Positions 2,734-16,712 of a stretch of DNA of 24,000 bases are shown here, piece by piece (position 1 is the first letter of the stretch; every line of letters begins with the position of its first letter). The DNA comes from Phascolarctobacterium succinatutens (GTDB lineage Bacteria; Bacillota; Negativicutes; Acidaminococcales; Acidaminococcaceae): assembly GCF_958453765.1 (NCBI RefSeq), contig NZ_CAUDZA010000007.1, positions 19,623 through 43,622 of the forward strand, given 5' to 3'. A program made the position numbers and the translations under genes. Below the pieces are notes generated by a model. It made no database searches. It was not told the origin of the DNA and was given only the letters and a program-made list of their open reading frames with translations.

Positions 2734-3771
2734 ATGACTTATCGTTTTAACAGTGATTACACCGAAGGCTGCCATCCTGCAGTCCTTGAAAAACTCGTGC
2801 AAACCAACATGGAGCAGACCGATGGCTACGGCCTTGATCCCTACTGCGACGAAGCACGTAAATTGATTAGAGAATCCTTCGCCTGCCCGAACGCTGACGT
2901 ACATTTTCTCGTTGGTGGCACCCAAACCAACCTGACGGTTATCTGCGCCGCCTTGCGTCCGCATCAGGCTGTTTACGGCGCTGTTCCCAGCCATATTAAT
3001 ACGCATGAGGCCGGTGCGATTGAGCATGTAGGTCACCGCGTACTGCCACTTCCGAGCGAGGACGGCAAGCTAACCGCAGAGCAAATCCGCCACGAATGGA
3101 AAATGTACGATACTGATCCAAGCCGTGAGCATTGGGCACAGCCGAAAATGGTTTATATCTCCCAACCGACTGAAATCGGCAGCATGTACAGCAAAAAAGA
3201 GCTGCAGGATTTATACCAGGCCTGCAAGGACTGCGGTCTTTACCTCTTTGTTGACGGCGCACGCTTAGGCTATGTTCTCGGCGCTCCCGACAACGATATG
3301 ACTGCTGCGGATTTAGCAGCAAACTGCGACGTTTTCTATATCGGCGGCACCAAATGCGGCCTGCTCTTCGGCGAAGCAGTTGTTATTTTGAACGATGCAC
3401 TTAAGCCTGACTTCCGCACTATTGCTAAGCAATGCGGTTCTATCATGGCCAAAGGACGTCTGCTCGGCGTACAGTTTGGCGCAATTATGAAAGATGACCT
3501 TTACAGCAAAATCTGCGGTAAGGGCACACTGCAGGCGCTGAAAATCCGTGATGCACTGTTAGCCAAAGGCTTCAAGTTCGTTACTGAATCCCCCACCAAC
3601 CAGCAATTTGTGATTATGACTCCGGCACAGTTTGAAAAGCTGAGCGAGGAATTTGCTCTCAGCCACATTGCTTATCTGGAGGACGGCAATTACAGCGTGC
3701 GCATCTGCACCAGCTGGGCAACCAAGGACGAAGAGGTTGACAGACTCATTGCTATGATCAACAAGCTGTAA
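2734..3771 (+). CDS. PLP-dependent threonine aldolase / beta-eliminating lyase family enzyme
   Basis: 345 aa, with GAGGGTG SD 8 nt upstream. N-terminus FNSDYTEGCHPAVLEKL...GYGLDPYC and the putative PLP-lysine context YIGGTKCGLLFGEAVV match the low-specificity threonine aldolase-like fold-type I family as I recall it. Confidence 0.7.
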   Translation: MTYRFNSDYTEGCHPAVLEKLVQTNMEQTDGYGLDPYCDEARKLIRESFACPNADVHFLVGGTQTNLTVICAALRPHQAVYGAVPSHINTHEAGAIEHVGHRVLPLPSEDGKLTAEQIRHEWKMYDTDPSREHWAQPKMVYISQPTEIGSMYSKKELQDLYQACKDCGLYLFVDGARLGYVLGAPDNDMTAADLAANCDVFYIGGTKCGLLFGEAVVILNDALKPDFRTIAKQCGSIMAKGRLLGVQFGAIMKDDLYSKICGKGTLQALKIRDALLAKGFKFVTESPTNQQFVIMTPAQFEKLSEEFALSHIAYLEDGNYSVRICTSWATKDEEVDRLIAMINKL

Positions 3772-3773
3772 GC

Positions 3774-3801
3774 TTGACAGAAAACGTAAATTTGCTATAA
3801 T
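3774..3801 (+). promoter_or_regulatory. Near-consensus sigma-A promoter directly after the aldolase stop codon
   Basis: TTGACA (3774-3779), 16-nt spacer, TATAAT (3796-3801). No protein-coding ORF with an SD follows it. Confidence 0.5.
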
Positions 3802-3807
3802 AAAAAT

Positions 3808-3902
3808 AAAGAGAGACTCTGACAGTCGCGTGTCAGCCCTCTCTGTTGATTGTTGTTATTTGACAAAAGGCTGACATTGACCTCTAATGTCGGTCTTTTG
3901 TT
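3808..3902 (+). ncRNA. Candidate ~95-nt sRNA (possible type I antitoxin), convergent with the small toxin-like ORF
   Basis: It is bounded by the promoter above and the hairpin plus T-run at 3869-3902. An internal two-tier hairpin pairs AGAGAG/CTCTCT (3810-3815 with 3839-3844) and CTGACA/TGTCAG (3819-3824 with 3831-3836). The ends are inferred, not measured. Confidence 0.3.
3869..3895. terminator. Bidirectional intrinsic terminator shared by the sRNA candidate (+) and the small peptide gene (-)
   Basis: GGCTGACATT...AATGTCGGTC hairpin with G-U pairs. It is flanked by ACAAAA upstream and CTTTTGTT downstream, so a U-run follows the stem on both strands. Confidence 0.55.
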
Positions 3903-3917
3903 ATATTGTAAGCAAAA

Positions 3918-3995
3918 TTACTTACGTTTAGACATAATGGTCGCAACAAGCAAACCAAATGTTAACATTATCTGTAACGCTTCGGCTACTCTCAT
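3918..3995 (-). CDS. 25-aa hydrophobic peptide, Hol-Tox-like (putative holin-like / type I toxin)
   Basis: Not in the ORF track because it is too short. GGAGG (4007-4003), 7 nt, then ATG at 3995. Translation is MRVAEALQIMLTFGLLVATIMSKRK, ending in TAA. The pattern polar N-terminus + EAL-x-(I/L)M-x2-FG + hydrophobic helix + basic tail matches what I recall of the Firmicutes 'putative holin-like toxin' family (Pfam Hol_Tox). It has its own promoter and terminator. Confidence 0.55.
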   Translation of the reverse strand: MRVAEALQIMLTFGLLVATIMSKRK

Positions 3996-4002
3996 GCTCC
4001 CA

Positions 4003-4016
4003 CCTCCTTACGGAGG
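4003..4016 (-). promoter_or_regulatory. SD-sequestering hairpin in the 5' UTR of the peptide mRNA
   Basis: The minus-strand RNA reads CCUCC-GUAA-GGAGG. The 3' arm is the SD itself, the 5' arm is a perfect anti-SD, and the loop is a GNRA tetraloop. Confidence 0.5.
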
Positions 4017-4043
4017 AACCGACCTGTCAGAATCTCTAGTGTT

Positions 4044-4072
4044 ATTATAACAGCTATCTTATTTGTTGACAA
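4044..4072 (-). promoter_or_regulatory. Sigma-A promoter for the small peptide gene
   Basis: On the minus strand: TTGTCA (4072-4067), 17-nt spacer, TATAAT (4049-4044). It lies about 40 nt upstream of the ATG. Confidence 0.55.
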
Positions 4073-4090
4073 TATGTTCGCAAAAATAAA

Positions 4091-4118
4091 AAGACGGTTG
4101 CTCGACCGTCTTTTTTAT
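4091..4118. terminator. Bidirectional intrinsic terminator downstream of alaX
   Basis: AAGACGGT (4091-4098), loop TGCTCG, ACCGTCTT (4105-4112), then TTTTATTTT. An A-run precedes the stem, so it works on both strands. It lies 11 nt past the alaX stop. Confidence 0.7.
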
Positions 4119-4128
4119 TTTGCTCTTT

Positions 4129-5328
4129 TTACTTCAACTTTTCTACAACGCTCTGCAGCTTTTCCTGCCAGTCGGCGCAATAATCCGCACCGCCCTGCGC
4201 GCAATCGCTCTTGCCGCCGCCACGGCCGCCAAAGGCTTCGTTGAGCAGCTTAATAACACTACGGCAATCGCCTGCAGTATCAGCCCCCAAAGCAACTGCG
4301 TAGCTGATGCGCTCAGGCTGCACTGCTACCAAAAGGCTCAGCGTGTTTTTCAAGGCAGTAACCTTCGGCAGAAAGGCTTTGATATCCTTGGCATCGTGAC
4401 CTTCCATAGGCAAAGCCAAAACCTTTACTCCATCAGCATTCACCGGTGCAGCAGCAAACGTTTCCTGCAGCTTTTCTTCTTCAATCTTCAGCAGCTTGCT
4501 CTTGGCAATGTCAAGCTGTGCAAGCAAATCATTTTTCTGCTTATTTACGGCAGCAGGCACCTGCTCGGGCTTTACGGAAAGACTTGCAGCGACGCTAAGT
4601 AATGTGCTGTTCTTGGCATCAGCATCCAATAGCGCTCTGCGGCCGCAGACAAACTCTACGCGGCAACCACCCTTATGCTTTTCATGACGGATGACCTTAA
4701 CACTGCCCAGCATCCCTGTAAATGGTGGATGCGTACCACAGCAGGTGCAGATATCGGCGTCCTCAACCGAAACAATACGCAACGTGCCTGTCAGCTTGCT
4801 GTTGAACTTACGCATTTTATCCTTCAGCTTGACAGCCTCTGTGCTGTCCATATAGCTGATATGTACCGGGCGATTCTCCCAGATGATTTCATTCGTATAT
4901 AATTCTGCCTGCAGCAGCTCCTCGTCCGTCAGCTCCTTATCAAGGTCAATGAAAACATCATCCTCATTCATGTGGAAGCCGATATTGTTGGCCTTAAACA
5001 GCTTCCAGCAGGCGTAGGACAAAAGATGCTCGCCCAAATGCTGCTGCATTCTGTCCAGACGCACAGGCCAGTCCAGCACAGCCTCTGCCTCGGCACCAAC
5101 CTCCAACGGCTTGTCGCACTCATGGTAAATGTGACCATCCTTTTCACTTACATGGCTTACGACCGCATCAGCCAGCTTGCCTCTGTCGCTCAGCTGACCG
5201 CCTCCCTCCGGAAAGAAAACCGTCTGGTCAAGCTCAACCAGATATTTGCCATCCTTAGGCGTGCAGGCCGTAACCTTCGCCACGCACTGTTTGAGCAAAG
5301 AATTATTTTCAAAAAGCTTAATTGTCAT
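4129..5328 (-). CDS. alaX: AlaX-L type alanyl-tRNA editing protein (AlaRS second additional domain + DHHA1-like C-terminus)
   Basis: 399 aa, with GAGGGGG SD. Zinc/editing motifs HxxxH (HLGEHLL) and CxxxH (CCGTH) are present in the expected order, followed by a C-terminal GGRGGGK stretch typical of the DHHA1 region. Confidence 0.75.
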   Translation of the reverse strand: MTIKLFENNSLLKQCVAKVTACTPKDGKYLVELDQTVFFPEGGGQLSDRGKLADAVVSHVSEKDGHIYHECDKPLEVGAEAEAVLDWPVRLDRMQQHLGEHLLSYACWKLFKANNIGFHMNEDDVFIDLDKELTDEELLQAELYTNEIIWENRPVHISYMDSTEAVKLKDKMRKFNSKLTGTLRIVSVEDADICTCCGTHPPFTGMLGSVKVIRHEKHKGGCRVEFVCGRRALLDADAKNSTLLSVAASLSVKPEQVPAAVNKQKNDLLAQLDIAKSKLLKIEEEKLQETFAAAPVNADGVKVLALPMEGHDAKDIKAFLPKVTALKNTLSLLVAVQPERISYAVALGADTAGDCRSVIKLLNEAFGGRGGGKSDCAQGGADYCADWQEKLQSVVEKLK

Positions 5329-5456: not shown

Positions 5457-6119
5457 ATGTTTCAAAATTTACTCTTTGATTTAGACGGTACCCTGACAAA
5501 TTCCGCCGAGGGTATCACCAAATGCGTACAATATGCCCTGCGCGCTCAAAATATTGAAGAGCCTGATTTGAAAAAGCTGGAGGTTTTCATCGGTCCGCCT
5601 CTGCGCGACAGCTTTATCAAATACTACGGCATGACCAGAGAAGAGGCTGAGGCCGGTGTAGAAAAATATCGTGAACGCTACACTGATATAGGCATCTGGG
5701 AAAACAAGGTTTATCCCGGTATCATGGAGCTCTTAGCTGACTTGCAGCAGGATGGCCGCCGCCTCGGCATGGCTACCGCCAAGCCGGAGGTTTTTGCGCT
5801 GAGAATTGCCAAACGCTTTGGCTTCAACCCCTATCTGGAAGATATTACCGGCTGCAGCCTGGACGGCAAAACCGATAAGAAAGCTTTAGTAGTTGCTGCC
5901 GCTCTGGAAAAATGGCAGCTTACTACACCAGAAGCTAAAAAGACTGTAGCACTTATCGGCGACCGCCGTGAAGATGTTCTTGCAGCTCACGCCAACGGCA
6001 TCGCCTGCATCGGCGCAGGCTTCGGCTTCGGCAGCTACGAGGAATTGTCGGAGGCAGGTGCCGATTACTATGTTTCTGATGTCCCGGCCTTAGCACGCTT
6101 TCTGCTGAGCAAAGCGTAA
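5457..6119 (+). CDS. HAD-IA family hydrolase (phosphoglycolate phosphatase-like)
   Basis: 220 aa, with AAGGAG SD. HAD motif I is FDLDGTLTNS, motif II is in MATAKP, and motif III/IV is around KK...IGDRREDV. Confidence 0.8.
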   Translation: MFQNLLFDLDGTLTNSAEGITKCVQYALRAQNIEEPDLKKLEVFIGPPLRDSFIKYYGMTREEAEAGVEKYRERYTDIGIWENKVYPGIMELLADLQQDGRRLGMATAKPEVFALRIAKRFGFNPYLEDITGCSLDGKTDKKALVVAAALEKWQLTTPEAKKTVALIGDRREDVLAAHANGIACIGAGFGFGSYEELSEAGADYYVSDVPALARFLLSKA

Positions 6120-6151: not shown

Positions 6152-6844
6152 ATGCATATTTACGCAATCGGTGACCTGCATTTATCAGGCGAACCGGCGA
6201 GCAAGCCCATGGAGGTTTTCGGCGAGCATTGGCGCAACCATAAAGAAAAGGTTGCCGCTAATTGGCAAAACACCGTAACCGCACAGGATACAGTCATTGT
6301 CTGCGGTGACATTTCCTGGGCCATGACTTTGGAAGAAGCAGCACAGGATTTAGACTGGCTGGCACAGCTTCCCGGTCGCAAGCTGCTGCTGCGCGGTAAC
6401 CACGACTACTGGTGGAGCAGCCTGAGCAAAATGCAGCAGCGTTACGGTGCTCATTTTGAATTTCTGCAGAACGACTGCATTATGGTAGAAGATATTGCTG
6501 TCTGCGGCACCCGCGGCTGGCTGCTGCCCTCAGCCGAAAGCTTCAGTGACGCCGACAGAAAAATTTACAATCGCGAAGGTATACGCCTGGAGCTTTCCCT
6601 GCAGCAGGCACATAAAATGCAGGCACAGCAGATAATTACGGCCTTTCACTATCCGCCGCTTTTTGCACGCACGGAGCATACCTGCTTTACTAATCTGATG
6701 CTGCGGTACGGTGTGCAGCACTGTGTCTACGGCCACATTCACGGTGAAAACCACATTCCCGTTTTTGAAGGATTGCGCGAAGGAATCAACTACAAGCTGG
6801 TTTCCTGCGATACGCAAGGCTTTCAGCTTTACAAGGTAATATAA
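6152..6844 (+). CDS. Calcineurin-like metallophosphoesterase
   Basis: 230 aa. Metallophosphoesterase motifs appear in the canonical order: GDLHL, GDISW, GNHDYW, GHIHG. Confidence 0.8.
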   Translation: MHIYAIGDLHLSGEPASKPMEVFGEHWRNHKEKVAANWQNTVTAQDTVIVCGDISWAMTLEEAAQDLDWLAQLPGRKLLLRGNHDYWWSSLSKMQQRYGAHFEFLQNDCIMVEDIAVCGTRGWLLPSAESFSDADRKIYNREGIRLELSLQQAHKMQAQQIITAFHYPPLFARTEHTCFTNLMLRYGVQHCVYGHIHGENHIPVFEGLREGINYKLVSCDTQGFQLYKVI

Positions 6845-6963: not shown

Positions 6964-8475
6964 TTATTTAGGATAGTTGCTGTTGGAGTTTTCTTTCAGC
7001 ATAACGTCATGTGCGCCGCCTTCAACCAAGCTGGTTGCGGAAACCAGAGTCAGCTTAGCCTTCTCCTGCAGCTCGCGGATGTTCAGAGCACCACAGTTGC
7101 ACATGGTGGAACGAACCTTTGCCAAAGTCAGGTTTACGTTATCCTTCAGGCTGCCTGCGTACGGAACGTAGGAGTCAACGCCTTCTTCGAAGGACAGCTT
7201 AGCTGCGCCGCCCATGTCATAACGTTGCCAGTTACGTGCACGGCTGGAACCTTCGCCCCAGTATTCCTTCATGTAGGTGCCGTTAATGTTAACCTTGTTG
7301 GTCGGGCTTTCGTCGAAACGAGCGAAGTAACGGCCCAGCATCATGAAGTCAGCGCCCATAGCCAGAGCCAGAGTCATGTGGTAATCATAAACGATACCAC
7401 CGTCGGAGCATACAGGAATGTATACGCCGGTTTCTTCGAAGTATTCGTCACGAGCCTTGCAAACATCAATCAGAGCAGTTGCCTGGCCACGGCCGATACC
7501 TTTTTGTTCACGGGTAATGCAGATAGAACCGCCGCCGATACCAACTTTAATAAAGTCAGCGCCAGCCTCAGCCAGGAAGCGGAAGCCTTCAGCGTCTACT
7601 ACGTTGCCTGCACCAACCTTAACGCTGTCACCGTAGTGCTCACGGATCCAGTCCAGAGTGATTTTCTGCCATGCGCTGTAGCCTTCGGAAGAGTCAATGC
7701 AGAGCACGTCTACGCCTGCATCAATTAATGCGGGAACACGCTCAGCATAGTCGCGGGTGTTGATACCTGCGCCGACGATGTGGCGTTTTTTGCTGTCCAG
7801 CAGCTCTAACGGATATTCCTTATGAGTTGCATAGTCTTTACGGAATACCATGTACAGCATACGGCCGTCATCATCAACGATAGGCAGAGTGTTGAGTTTT
7901 TTCTCCCAGATGATATCGTTAGCCTGTTGCAGGGTGGTATCTTTCGGAGCGTAAACCATTTTGTCAATCGGAGTCATGAAGTCACGAACCTTAGCATCCA
8001 TAGACATACGGCTCGGACGATAGTCACGGCTGGTAACAATGCCTTCCAGCTTGCCGTTAGCGGTACCATCGCTGGTAACAGCAACAGTGGAGTGACCGGT
8101 GCGTTCCTTCAGTGCCAGGATGTCAGCCAGAGTGCTGTCCGGACGGATATTGGAGTCGCTGCTTACAAAGCCTGCGCGATAGCCTTTAACACGAGCAACC
8201 ATAGCAGCTTCATCCTCTACGGATTGAGAACCATAGATGAAAGAAACGCCGCCCTCTTTGGAAAGAGCTACAGCCAGCTTTTCTCCGGAAACAGCCTGCA
8301 TGATAGCAGAAACCATCGGGATGTTCATAGTAATTGCCGGTTCTTCACCTTTTTTGTATTTAACCAGCGGCGTACGCAGGTCTACATTGGCGGGGATACA
8401 TTTTTCGGAGGAATAACCGGGAACTAACAGGTACTCACTAAATGTGTGAGCAGGTTCATCATAATAAAAAGCCAT
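6964..8475 (-). CDS. guaB: IMP dehydrogenase
   Basis: 503 aa. It has a TIM barrel with an inserted CBS pair and the catalytic-Cys loop [20 protein letters not shown]. The C-terminal segment is [13 protein letters not shown]...EGGAHD. Confidence 0.9.
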
Positions 8476-14392: not shown

Positions 14393-14439
14393 TAAACTGT
14401 GAACTTTTTAACAGTTTTTTAGAAAATCGTTCGGAAAAA
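14393..14439 (-). promoter_or_regulatory. Possible PurR-type operator (two inverted PurBox-like elements)
   Basis: Minus strand reads TTTTTCCGAACGATTTTC (14439-14422) and AAAAAGTTCACAGTTTA (14409-14393), with cores CCGAAC and GTTCAC 30 nt apart just upstream of the -35. The Bacillus PurBox as I recall it is AWWWCCGAACWWT. The second box is imperfect. Confidence 0.35.
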
Positions 14440-14453
14440 CTTCAGAGCAAAGG

Positions 14454-14497
14454 AAAAGCACCCTCCGCCGCCGCTTTCACGGCAGCAGAGAGTGCGC
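14454..14497 (-). repeat. Left copy of the direct repeat; also the intrinsic terminator of the islet's last gene
   Basis: AAAAGCACCCTCCGCCGCCGCTTTCACGGCAGCAGAGAGTGCGC matches 16649-16694 at 41 of 46 aligned columns, and the 3' 23 nt are identical. Minus-strand RNA forms a ~15-bp G-C/G-U stem followed by a U-rich run CUUUUCCUUU. Confidence 0.75.
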
Positions 14498-14505
14498 GAA
14501 AATCT

Positions 14506-15108
14506 CTATATTCCAGCGTACTTATTATGCCTATATAATTCGACGCTGCTAACTAAACCTTTACTAACAACTTTCTTCTCTTTCAACAACACAGTATATT
14601 GAGTCTGTCTCGTGCTGTAATCATACGCAGTTTCTTGAAATATAGAATTCATACAATATTTCTTGTCTGTTCTCACAAAGAAAGAAAATACTATGGGTTC
14701 ATTGGCAAGCATCCCTTTTGCTAAATAATCAGCTGTTATTCTTGTAGCAAATGCAACCCTGTTCTTATCATAAGAATAAAATTTCGTTTCCTGAGCATCT
14801 ATAACCTGTTCTAAAATTTTCAAGGAATATAAGCGTTCTTCTAATATCGAAAAATTTTTATCACTTGCAATCACATCACTTGTAACTGTTCCGTTGAGAA
14901 TATGCTCTAATATCCACGTACTAGTCCGTTGCTGAAACGAGTATCTTTGCTTTAGTTTATGAAAGCCAGCTAAATGATAAAAGTTTTCTGGCATAAAAAC
15001 GATATTCAAATCAAAAGTATTACCCTTTCTACCCAAAACAATATGATACTCAACTGCTATCAAATTTTTATATGCCTGAGCCGCCATCAATAAAATATCT
15101 CGTCCCAT
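14506..15108 (-). CDS. 200-aa protein, tentatively PBECR4-like (Barnase-EndoU-ColicinE5/D-RelE fold) predicted RNase
   Basis: AAAGGGGA SD. The ORF is clean in an AT-rich context. N-terminal AYKNLIAVEYHIVLGRKGNTFDLNIVFMPENFYHLAGFHKL and C-terminal YTVLLKEKK resemble PBECR4-domain proteins as I remember them. No alignment was computed. I am confident the ORF is real (~0.85); the confidence given here is for the family assignment. Confidence 0.5.
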   Translation of the reverse strand: MGRDILLMAAQAYKNLIAVEYHIVLGRKGNTFDLNIVFMPENFYHLAGFHKLKQRYSFQQRTSTWILEHILNGTVTSDVIASDKNFSILEERLYSLKILEQVIDAQETKFYSYDKNRVAFATRITADYLAKGMLANEPIVFSFFVRTDKKYCMNSIFQETAYDYSTRQTQYTVLLKEKKVVSKGLVSSVELYRHNKYAGI

Positions 15109-15130
15109 AAATCCCCTTTCTTAAATAAGC

Positions 15131-15317
15131 AAAATGGACACTACCGAGAAAATAGTGTCCATCTGCATTTTGCTATTTTTATGTCTGCACACGAACGTAC
15201 ATAAGTCAGGTTGAGGTTTCTATAGCAAAACCCTACATAAAGCTCCTCCAAGTCCCGCATCCTGACACGCTTCTTGGCATCACCACTTATACTGACACAC
15301 TCCGTTGCCAGTTCTCT
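15131..15317 (-). ncRNA. Candidate structured non-coding leader/sRNA (~185 nt) between its own promoter and the hairpin above
   Basis: No SD-preceded ORF is present. An imperfect ~22-bp hairpin spans 15205-15266 (GTCAGG/CCTGAC, TTGAGG/CCTCCAA, TTTCTATAG/CTACATAAA). A second helix pairs 15306-15310 with 15275-15279. G+C is visibly higher than in the flanking islet genes. The ends are inferred. Confidence 0.3.
15134..15162 (-). terminator. Terminator/attenuator hairpin 25 nt upstream of the RNase-like gene start
   Basis: Minus-strand RNA AUGGACACUA-N9-UAGUGUCCAU forms a perfect 10-bp stem, followed by UUUGCUUAUUU, then AAAGGGGA and the ATG. Confidence 0.5.
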
Positions 15318-15323
15318 ATTCAT

Positions 15324-15352
15324 ATCTTACTATACATAACTGAACTTGTCAA
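15324..15352 (-). promoter_or_regulatory. Sigma-A promoter inside the islet
   Basis: Minus strand: TTGACA (15352-15347), 17-nt spacer, TAAGAT (15329-15324). Confidence 0.5.
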
Positions 15353-15513
15353 ATTTTTCTTTCCCTACTTCTCCACCAACACCTTATACATTTTCATCAG
15401 CTCTGCTACGCACGTCGCTTCGCTGTTAAGCCTGCCCCCAAAGCCATACGCTTCCATGACAGTTATGTACTTCGCTATGTTTAGTACATTTATGTATTAC
15501 ACATTGAATATTC

Positions 15514-16458
15514 TCACTCCTCTATCTCAATCCCCATGATAGGTCCCCAATCAGCCAAAGTTCTTTCAGACGTTGGACTTTTAATATATACATGTAACTT
15601 ATCAATATCAAATTCTAATCCTCTTGCACCATTCATTCCAGCATATGTCTTTACCACTCTCTCCACAACTATTTCTTTTTGCCCCTTATTCAAATAATAC
15701 CAATTAGAATTTACATAAACAACAACAAAATATTGCCCTCTAAATCTGCATCCATCATATAGGCCATTTAGAGTATTACTAAGGACTTTATCATATGATT
15801 CTATTAATTCTTTTAATACTGCTGCATCAACAATTTTTTTCTTTTCCTCTTCTATTTCTGGCGTTTTATTTTTTGTTACGTCCACAACTCTATTTTCACT
15901 AGTTTGATTTTCTATCTTTTTATTTTCTACACTAGTTGTACAAGGAACAAATTTCACTAACAAAAACATAATTACACCAAAAATTGCATATACTGTTAAT
16001 GCAACCCATTTGGTACTTTTAAATAAATCAGGATATAATTTTTCTATCTCTACTCTTTTTTCATTATCAAATCTACGACACTTTCCAATATACTCATCAA
16101 TAGAATCCACATATTTAAATTTAAGTTCTAACTCATCTCCTAACGACTTCATCAAATCACAAAGATCTAACATCTCCAATTTAATTTCAACATTAACTTT
16201 ATCTGTTTTAAGTTTTTCCCCTTTCAAGATAGAAAATTCCTTTTCAGCATAATTTTCACACTTGTTCACTATATCAGTAATAGCTAACGTTCTATCTATA
16301 CCATAATCATTTTCTATTAACTTAAATGACATCAAAACACATTTTTTTAAATTCTTAGCAGCTTTATGTCGAGCTATCTCTCCATTTACAATGCTATTAT
16401 ATGTAGTGTAAAATACTGATTCCCAATTATCCTTTGAATACTCATCCACAAATATCAC
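15514..16458 (-). CDS. 314-aa single-pass membrane protein of unknown function
   Basis: N-terminal ~150-aa helical-looking domain, one TM helix (WVALTVYAIFGVIMFLLVKFV), a K/E/N-rich linker, and a C-terminal ~105-aa domain (GQYFVVVYVNSNWYYLNKGQKEIVVERVV...). I recognise no family. The start is uncertain: GTG 16458 sits only 1 nt after GGAAAGG, GTG 16449 is an alternative, and a strong SD+ATG at 16492 is out of frame. Confidence 0.75.
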   Translation of the reverse strand: MIFVDEYSKDNWESVFYTTYNSIVNGEIARHKAAKNLKKCVLMSFKLIENDYGIDRTLAITDIVNKCENYAEKEFSILKGEKLKTDKVNVEIKLEMLDLCDLMKSLGDELELKFKYVDSIDEYIGKCRRFDNEKRVEIEKLYPDLFKSTKWVALTVYAIFGVIMFLLVKFVPCTTSVENKKIENQTSENRVVDVTKNKTPEIEEEKKKIVDAAVLKELIESYDKVLSNTLNGLYDGCRFRGQYFVVVYVNSNWYYLNKGQKEIVVERVVKTYAGMNGARGLEFDIDKLHVYIKSPTSERTLADWGPIMGIEIEE

Positions 16459-16533
16459 ACCTTTCCAAATTGATCTATAGAAAGTATATCATTCTCCCCT
16501 CCCTAGAGTCAAATGTTTTTAACATCTATTGTT

Positions 16534-16563
16534 ATTATCAACTATAGATACTAAAATAGTCAA
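16534..16563 (-). promoter_or_regulatory. Putative promoter for the membrane-protein gene
   Basis: Minus strand: TTGACT (16563-16558), 18-nt spacer, GATAAT (16539-16534). Confidence 0.35.
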
Positions 16564-16648
16564 ACACTTTTAGGTTTCTCATCAATATCCATCTTAGAAT
16601 AAACAAGGCAAAAATGCTAAACTTACTTTAGATATGTCCACGCACACA

Positions 16649-16694
16649 AAAAGCGCACCCCCTGCCGCCGTTTTCACGGCAGCAGAGAGTGCGC
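16649..16694 (-). terminator. clpB intrinsic terminator; right copy of the direct repeat
   Basis: Minus-strand RNA GCGCACUCUCUGCUGCCG-UGAAAA-CGGCGGCAGGGGGUGCGC forms an 18-bp stem with 3 G-U pairs, followed by UUUUUGUGUG. It lies 18 nt after the clpB stop. Confidence 0.8.
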
Positions 16695-16712
16695 CAAGTC
16701 TCACAGCATATT

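Follow-up and report, generated by a model that had tools for sequence, protein, structure and literature searches.

Between the core genes clpB and purE of Phascolarctobacterium succinatutens lies a small AT-rich islet, and the question that it raises is which of its parts belong together, how they came to stand there and what they might do. We analysed it within a stretch of 24,000 nt from contig NZ_CAUDZA010000007.1 (hereafter the window); coordinates are those of the window's plus strand, and the relevant genes all lie on the minus strand. An earlier note on this DNA, made from its letters alone, had read the islet as a horizontally acquired two-gene module of the toxin, abortive-infection or defence kind, composed of a predicted BECR-fold RNase and a single-pass membrane protein, and had matched it to no named system. 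We find instead that the constant partner of the RNase is an RNA. The protein belongs to the Pfam family PBECR4 and the RNA to the Rfam drum motif, so that both are named families, and it is the function of the pair that is undescribed. We propose, tentatively, that the two form a type III-like toxin-antitoxin or abortive-infection system in which drum neutralises the RNase, a reading that we favour while placing it a little short of probable.

A predicted RNase and a pseudoknotted RNA

The last gene of the islet encodes a protein of 200 aa, identical to WP_302291478.1 of P. succinatutens, which matches PF18813 (PBECR4) at 86.1 bits against a threshold of 27 (E=5e-24), with residues 5-183 falling on profile positions 1-178 of 188. 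Its AF2 model has a pLDDT of 93. Two residues do not vary within the family, H45 of a YHLAG motif (in both of our alignments) and R92, and T172 is invariant among close relatives and replaced by Ala in two distant members (L066 and L093; L and P numbers are our handles for loci and proteins). We recovered 91 family members of roughly 90-270 aa, mostly 180-250 aa, in which PF18813 is the sole Pfam domain except in P0182, which also carries PF00294. Four proteins (P0107 and P0114, both 174 aa; P0103, 184 aa; P0115, 167 aa) end prematurely just past the conserved residues QYTVL; such short P. succinatutens alleles are a minority and may be inactivated toxins, or some of them may be cut by contig ends.

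By family membership PBECR4 would share a superfamily, that of RNases which need no metal and keep a His in the N-terminal helix, with the PBECR nucleases found in the polyvalent proteins of phages and conjugative elements (Iyer et al., 2017, PMC5512222), with colicins D and E5 and with the BECR toxins of contact-dependent inhibition (CDI) systems. These relatives are deployed in genetic conflicts, and several of them cut tRNA. PBECR4 differs from them in two ways: it is here always a solo protein of about 200 aa, whereas its polyvalent relatives are domains of injected proteins, and it comes without a protein immunity gene.

The RNA encoded directly upstream is a full-length drum RNA (RF02958), scoring 64.5 bits against a gathering score of 43 over model positions 1-112 of 112, and is followed by an intrinsic terminator that matches the published description of the motif (Weinberg et al., 2017). 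In an alignment of 17 sequences the bases of helix P1 are paired in 91% of cases, those of P2 in 79% and those of the pseudoknot, which joins the P2 loop to a CCUGAC segment, in 97%; double changes occur at 24 of 29 pairs, and the covariation score was reached by none of 500 shuffles. It should be noted that MAFFT aligned the 3' helices of drum poorly and that RNAalifold run on the MAFFT alignment returned the pseudoknot helix only, so the nested Rfam structure was entered by hand for the model (R1). Compared with the copy of a sister species, drum keeps 104 of 122 nt (85%), while synonymous sites of the adjoining gene are near saturation (67% differ). PBECR4 itself has a ratio of non-synonymous to synonymous divergence (dN/dS) of 0.09 against the sister-species copy, at a proportion of synonymous differences (pS) of 0.67. 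Both the RNA and the protein are thus under purifying selection.

The anatomy of the unit is compact. A promoter-like site with a 17-nt spacer between TTGACA and TAAGAT is followed by a 29-nt leader, TAGAGAACTGGCAACGGAGTGTGTCAGTA (15318-15290), which begins at the predicted transcription start and precedes drum. The leader is 100% identical in the window and in two further loci (L097:5793-5821 and L098:5793-5821), three lineages with PBECR4 proteins that are 64-77% identical, and the functional RNA of this clade may extend past the 5' end of the Rfam model. The leader also repeats the GUGUCAG of the pseudoknot-forming loop. On the other side of drum, the ribosome-binding site AAGAAAGGGG follows the terminator, and the ATG of PBECR4 stands 58 nt past the RNA; a promoter scan found no promoter-like site in this gap, so that PBECR4 would depend on read-through of the drum terminator. 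The apparent N-terminal 'extensions' of two family members (P0019 and P0022) look like read-through of the RNA region. A 60-aa open reading frame at 15141-15323 was considered as a small antitoxin and dropped: it overlaps drum and matches no family.

Linkage of PBECR4 to drum

Starting from PBECR4 proteins, we searched the DNA upstream of their genes for drum on the same strand. It was present upstream in 16 of 16 full-length loci on contigs from a one-genome-per-species collection, whose hosts include Dialister, Anaerovibrio, Selenomonas, Phascolarctobacterium, Ruminococcus, Peptococcaceae, Lachnospiraceae, other Clostridia and a spirochaete. The same holds for all five viral contigs of a first IMG/VR scan and for 20 of the 21 contigs of a broader viral scan, the remaining one having no upstream DNA. 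The pair was also found in seven metagenome lineages (L097, L098, L102, L141, L144, L146, L148) and in all three plasmids recovered, namely Streptococcus suis pID32563-SS1, Enterococcus faecalis pKUB3006-2 and Enterococcus faecium pP47-61. Across the linked loci drum lies 27-170 nt 5' of PBECR4 on the same strand, with a hairpin and U-run between the two in 27 of 30 modules. Three weak, partial PBECR4 matches (L035, L038, L039) have no clear drum, and one of them (L035) has a drum-like match of 25 bits.

No conserved protein neighbour of the module was found across 25 non-redundant loci, which leaves drum as the only constant partner of PBECR4. A neighbour cluster common to three loci was examined as a possible partner and set aside, as it consisted of generic ABC ATPases. 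The surroundings themselves vary. On the E. faecalis plasmid (L150, 2841-6504) and the E. faecium plasmid (L151, 444-3585) the module is accompanied by AbiH and a MazF toxin gene or by a trio of TIR-domain, DUF6414 and AAA-ATPase genes, and elsewhere it stands at the integrase end of a prophage or in a conjugative element; these contexts fit genetic conflict systems. In a Ruminococcus metagenome-assembled genome (L031) two modules stand in tandem (2825-3579 and 3707-4450), with a promoter/leader repeat of 87 nt that is 99% identical.

drum without PBECR4 in phages

The linkage does not hold in the other direction. A pattern built from the conserved positions of drum, in which PBECR4 was not used, found 52 viral stretches, of which 40 gave covariance matches above 50 bits; these reduce to 31 distinct instances. 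PBECR4 comes next after seven of the 31 phage drum RNAs; 13 stand in tRNA arrays without PBECR4, and 11 are in neither setting. In the arrays, which lie on large phage contigs (L055:10537-11897, L086:2101-3033, L067:3640-4699, L069, L080, L084, L085, L088, L090, L092, L064) every tRNA within 1 kb is on the drum strand. Three copies of drum are interspersed among tRNA-Gln, Phe, Tyr and Thr in one of them (L055), and there and in another (L086) a tRNA begins 2-6 nt past drum, in the place usually taken by the terminator. The neighbours of the other 11 include integrases, lysis genes, a HipBA pair, an AAA_21 ATPase, a GIY-YIG gene and an IS200-like gene. None of the viral PBECR4 loci is a tRNA-array contig, within the sensitivity of that scan, and GenBank phages gave no tblastn match for PBECR4 and no blastn match for two drum sequences. 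In phages and prophages drum abuts tyrosine integrase genes at three loci (L079:613-1919, L095:1441-2747, L096:4711-5852), and drum genes might, like tRNA genes, act as attachment sites.

The linkage is therefore one-sided: PBECR4 always occurs with drum, and drum often occurs without PBECR4. Such one-sided dependence is typical of toxin-antitoxin pairs. It also bears on a different account, in which drum is a cis-acting leader, either riboswitch-like or an attenuator sensing a protein or tRNA, that decides on read-through into PBECR4. This would explain the constant position of drum 5' of PBECR4, co-oriented with it and separated from it by a terminator, and why the promoter scan of the window gave PBECR4 no promoter of its own. 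However, the drum RNAs of phage tRNA arrays are free-standing, with tRNAs in place of the terminator and open reading frame, and others lie beside integrases or lysis genes with no downstream open reading frame; moreover, Weinberg et al. (2017, PMC5737381) rate these motifs improbable riboswitches. We consider a leader function improbable. The free-standing copies in phage tRNA arrays indicate that drum is also made as a discrete RNA, acting in trans.

A discrete RNA need not be an antidote. drum and PBECR4 might form a working ribonucleoprotein in which drum is a scaffold, cofactor, specificity element or substrate: PBECR4 might mature drum, for example, or a tRNA or other target might be brought in or presented through drum, with the complex as the active agent. 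The obligatory linkage and the lack of a protein partner would agree with this, as would the embedding of drum in tRNA arrays and its pseudoknot and many invariant unpaired bases, a complexity that Weinberg et al. (2017) deem typical of sophisticated biochemical functions. Yet the many phage drums without PBECR4 point to a role for which the protein is not required in cis, a variable segment that could serve as a guide is lacking in drum, and a terminator that limits the protein relative to the RNA is what an antidote made in excess predicts. A ribonucleoprotein of this kind seems to us unlikely, if less so than a leader.

The membrane protein is a passenger

The second protein of the islet, of 314 aa, has a helical N-terminal domain, a transmembrane segment near residues 150-170 and a C-terminal domain to which no function is assigned. 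It has no match in Pfam, PADLOC or NCBIfam, and a search of 5.8 billion proteins recovered its own cluster alone. An exhaustive HMMER scan gave 58 remote relatives (proteins of 120-510 aa), mostly to the C-terminal domain, and among those tested no Pfam family for that domain was found. The AF2 model (pLDDT 52) shows the helical N-terminal domain and one transmembrane helix and does not resolve the C-terminus; it was too poor to be used as a query for structure searches.

We weighed this protein as a partner or immunity protein of PBECR4, the two proteins then making up a toxin/immunity or abortive-infection cassette and moving together as a 2.2-kb unit. In the allele of the window the two genes do adjoin, are co-oriented and share the flanking repeats. 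But the 314-aa gene was seen in same-species loci only and is missing from all other drum-PBECR4 loci, a DpnII system taking its place in a sister species; it has separate promoter-like sites and a different G+C content (0.295, against 0.333 for PBECR4 and 0.434 for drum); and it is split in one strain locus (L012, 6660-7595), truncated in a second (L014, 6659-7282) and N-terminally altered in a third (L015, 6777-7595), in all of which the adjoining drum is unchanged and PBECR4 identical. With no conserved neighbour either, the candidate was rejected, and the two-protein cassette is a reading that we regard as very improbable. An orphan that is broken in some strains and absent elsewhere does not make a module with the RNase, and the 314-aa gene is an independent passenger. 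The two-gene module of the earlier note therefore falls, whereas its predicted BECR-fold RNase behind a promoter, structured RNA and terminator was correctly called; that RNA and that protein turn out to be families with names.

A strain-variable islet at a duplicated terminator

The features of the region are collected in Table 1.

Table 1. Features of the clpB-purE region, in window coordinates
Feature	Position	Strand	Remarks
clpB	19292-16713	minus	other callers place the start at ~19253
Right (clpB-proximal) terminator copy, the clpB terminator	16642..16697, hairpin 16695-16652	minus	20 pairs + T-run
Two promoter-like sites 5' of the 314-aa gene	16483..16563	minus	10/12 each, consensus matches only
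Orphan 314-aa single-pass membrane protein gene	15514..16458	minus	own promoter-like sites
Relic 3' end of an MmeI-family (type IIL) restriction-modification gene, ...VMEAYGFGGRLNSEATCVAELMKMYKVLVEK*	15370..15460	minus	homology with L097
drum promoter and 29-nt leader	15290..15352	minus	promoter scan; -35 TTGACA 15352-15347, -10 TAAGAT 15329-15324
drum RNA (Rfam RF02958)	15167..15288	minus	covariance model; putative RNA antidote/partner of PBECR4
Intrinsic terminator between drum and PBECR4	15122..15164, hairpin 15164-15132	minus	14-pair stem + T-run
PBECR4 gene, 200 aa	14506..15108	minus	PF18813; predicted metal-independent endoRNase, putative toxin
Left (purE-proximal) terminator copy	14448..14500, hairpin 14495-14458	minus	17 pairs + T-run
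pur promoter	14391-14363	minus	purE, then purF downstream

The alleles of the slot between clpB and purE were surveyed on contigs that encode an identical PurE. An empty-site pattern was matched by 17 human-gut metagenome contigs (L103-L119), and in the eight of them displayed the clpB stop codon, a single terminator and the pur promoter are contiguous. Relative to these empty sites the window has an insert of 2158 nt (14491-16648) and a duplication of 39 nt (14452-14490 and 16649-16687). The locus thus has the presence/absence polymorphism, the precise empty site and the flanking direct repeats (39-43 nt) of a genomic island, and no recombinase of its own in the interval. Other alleles have other cargo: a 92-aa gene with a DUF4160 gene in most contigs (L001-L010, about 7237-7750), a pair of adhesin genes with YadA-head and YadA-anchor domains in L008 (5815-7709), a gene of 311-314 aa with PBECR4 in L011-L020 and, in the sister species, a three-gene DpnII-type restriction-modification system (L097:2671-5576). 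Each alternative cargo ends in a hairpin of its own, and the last part of the clpB terminator recurs in the 3' arm and T-run of that hairpin (GGTGCTTTTTT). The index blocks of the collection number 20,806 for the exact PurE and 1,258 for the exact PBECR4, a rough ratio that makes the islet a minority allele.

The repeats are two copies of one terminator. The direct repeat (14458-14500 and 16655-16697) is 91% identical over 43 ungapped nt, with a run of 23 nt, TTTCACGGCAGCAGAGAGTGCGC, that is the same in both copies, and the window contains exactly two occurrences of the 22-nt core, where chance would give 0.00. Among the fetched loci, islet-free alleles have one copy of the core and nine of ten islet-carrying loci have two; the tenth (L011) has a single exact match. 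A genome-wide family resembling repetitive extragenic palindromes was discarded as an explanation, since no further copies were found in the window or in ~16 kb of flanking DNA at 34 loci. The left copy ends the PBECR4 transcript and shields the pur promoter. Between the two, at 14419-14440 on the minus strand, lies TTTTCCGAACGATTTTC, which resembles the Firmicute PurBox (AWWWCCGAACWWT) and is conserved in every allele, empty sites included.

Compared arm by arm, the left terminator copy has an islet-type 5' arm and the same 3' arm as the empty-site terminator, and a sliding comparison with the empty-site allele gives just 73% identity for the right copy and the ~100 nt preceding it, against 93-100% for the remaining parts of both flanks. 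The simplest reading is that the allele would derive from a diverged lineage whose cargo had terminator copies on both sides already, and would have been acquired through homologous exchange. The insert has a G+C content of 0.33, clpB and purE of 0.49. No tRNA was found in the window, and the interval has no integrase, transposase or other recombinase among its open reading frames and domain matches, and no long inverted repeats.

We conclude that the slot is a hot spot and that the islet in it varies from strain to strain and is exchanged horizontally. In its empty allele and at least four cargos, restriction-modification among them, the slot is like the integration hot spots and small defence islands that lie between core genes, and the likeness extends to exchange that involves the flanking core genes. 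Unlike the usual hot spots, it is very small (0-3.5 kb) and without a recombinase, and its junction sits within a duplicated transcription terminator. Much of what the earlier note had said about the site holds up: the duplicated clpB terminator with its two hairpins and T-runs, the right copy serving clpB and the left one ending the last gene of the islet, the AT-rich interval, an ancestral empty site with one terminator, different cargo in the same slot, horizontal acquisition and the lack of mobility genes and tRNA.

Composite origin of the islet

The sister species (L097) is ~84% identical to the window in clpB and the pur genes, and its PBECR4 is 77% identical to that of the window. The order there is clpB, a 94-aa gene, a Dam-like methylase, DpnII, an N6/N4 methylase, drum, PBECR4 and purE. 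Homology with the window starts at 15460, 172 nt 5' of drum, and runs through PBECR4 into the pur promoter region. The drum-PBECR4 part is thus common to the two species and the part upstream of it differs; the islet is therefore a composite of two unrelated units, the orphan membrane-protein gene and the drum-PBECR4 module. At the common left edge, directly 5' of the drum promoter, stands what is left of a dead gene, its 3' end. In the sister species this relic (5600-5745) matches PF20467, MmeI_C, at 28 bits against a cut-off of 27 (E=2.6e-6), and the window relic by itself has no Pfam match.

In the sister species ~45 nt of the relic gene end lie on both sides of the module (5711-5753 and 6616-6658). 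Direct repeats of 20-60 nt also bracket the module in two other loci (L021:2627-2684/3687-3744 and L024:64-84/1068-1088), and in all three loci they duplicate a gene end or a piece of terminator, as in the window. The recurrence of bracketing repeats across lineages hints at a common route of insertion.

The DpnII system in the sister slot, the MmeI_C relic and the AbiH, MazF and TIR genes beside plasmid copies give the slot a defence-island character, and within the window itself the relic is the sole remaining neighbour of defence type. The earlier idea of a defence-type module accordingly survives in the flavour of its context, restriction-modification genes included, and not in its two-protein make-up. 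A relic could also be taken to mean that the islet as a whole is decaying junk left by earlier insertions and without current function, the more so as some strains have a broken 314-aa gene and truncated PBECR4 alleles (174 or 184 aa) occur as a minority. Against this stand the strong purifying selection on PBECR4 and the conservation of drum across species, the intact promoter, terminator and ribosome-binding site, and an architecture kept across phyla and replicon types. We think it highly improbable that the islet is mere debris.

Discussion

The anatomy, the polymorphism of the slot, the one-sided linkage and the purifying selection are direct observations; from them, and from the relatives of PBECR4, we infer toxicity, neutralisation by the RNA, a target and a role in defence, and can offer a rough proposal for how the module might work. 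A single promoter would give a transcript of ~190 nt, the 29-nt leader included, most of which would end at the intrinsic terminator, and occasional read-through of that terminator would provide the PBECR4 mRNA. The abundant, pseudoknotted drum RNA would bind and neutralise PBECR4. Upon loss of the drum supply, through shut-off of transcription by a phage or loss of the element, the RNase would be freed to cut an essential RNA, possibly tRNA; the choice of tRNA is a guess, made because of the BECR relatives (colicins D and E5) and the tRNA-array context. Phages that have drum alone in their tRNA arrays could then supply a decoy antidote. It is possible, though doubtful enough that we rank it below the type III-like reading itself, that drum is the antidote of a new RNA-protein family of toxin-antitoxin or abortive-infection systems and that large phages took drum into their tRNA arrays as a decoy disarming this defence, perhaps together with tRNAs that make up for those cut by the RNase. 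Escape phages with a pseudo-ToxI, which Blower and colleagues are said to have described in 2012, are comparable to such RNA-only phage copies.

The closest likeness is to the type III systems ToxIN, AbiQ-antiQ, CptIN and TenpIN. As in these, a promoter, an RNA gene, a terminator and an endoRNase gene follow one another, the RNA gene directly 5' of the putative toxin gene and on the same strand with the terminator between, and there is no protein antitoxin; both kinds of system occur on plasmids, phages and chromosomes.

Several points weigh against the proposal. Known type III antitoxins are tandem repeats that the toxin processes, arrays of 34-36-nt units, whereas drum is a single pseudoknotted molecule of 110-120 nt, present in one copy, and no tandem repeat was found at 15100-15400. 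PBECR4 is the only significant family match of the protein, its predicted fold is unlike that of ToxN or AbiQ, and no PADLOC model matches either PBECR4 or the 314-aa protein. The toxicity of PBECR4 and its binding to drum are predictions drawn by analogy. Eleven of the 31 phage drum RNAs adjoin neither PBECR4 nor tRNAs, and no phage copies of the Negativicutes drum subtype were found in IMG/VR. Finally, according to Weinberg et al. (2017, PMC5737381) the gene associated with drum may lie on either side and in either orientation, whereas the arrangement seen here is strict. What we propose is thus a pair that works like a type III system and not a relative of ToxIN.

As to what was on record, drum is credited with a 'compelling association' with a nearby protein gene, and no function is given (Weinberg et al., 2017). 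In a literature search that extended to this article without its supplementary text, we found no paper that names PBECR4 as the partner of drum or proposes a role, and the association may already be partly on record in that supplement. Compared with the published description, the window RNA is a regular full-length member followed by its terminator; added here are the identity of the partner, PBECR4, the fixed order and strand, and a second population of drum RNAs in phage tRNA arrays.

In summary, the clpB-purE terminator is now documented as a recombination hot spot in a prevalent species of the human gut, and drum, since 2017 an orphan (a conserved, pseudoknotted RNA of several phyla and phages), is tied to one predicted RNase. 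If our proposal is true, type III-like systems would no longer be confined to toxins of the ToxN type and antitoxins made of repeat arrays. In the module, the defence finders now in use would be overlooking a defence or addiction unit, and there would be a reason for some of the non-tRNA genes that stand in the tRNA clusters of phages. The plasmid copies have cultured Enterococcus and Streptococcus hosts, which makes the hypothesis of an RNA antidote and its toxin testable.

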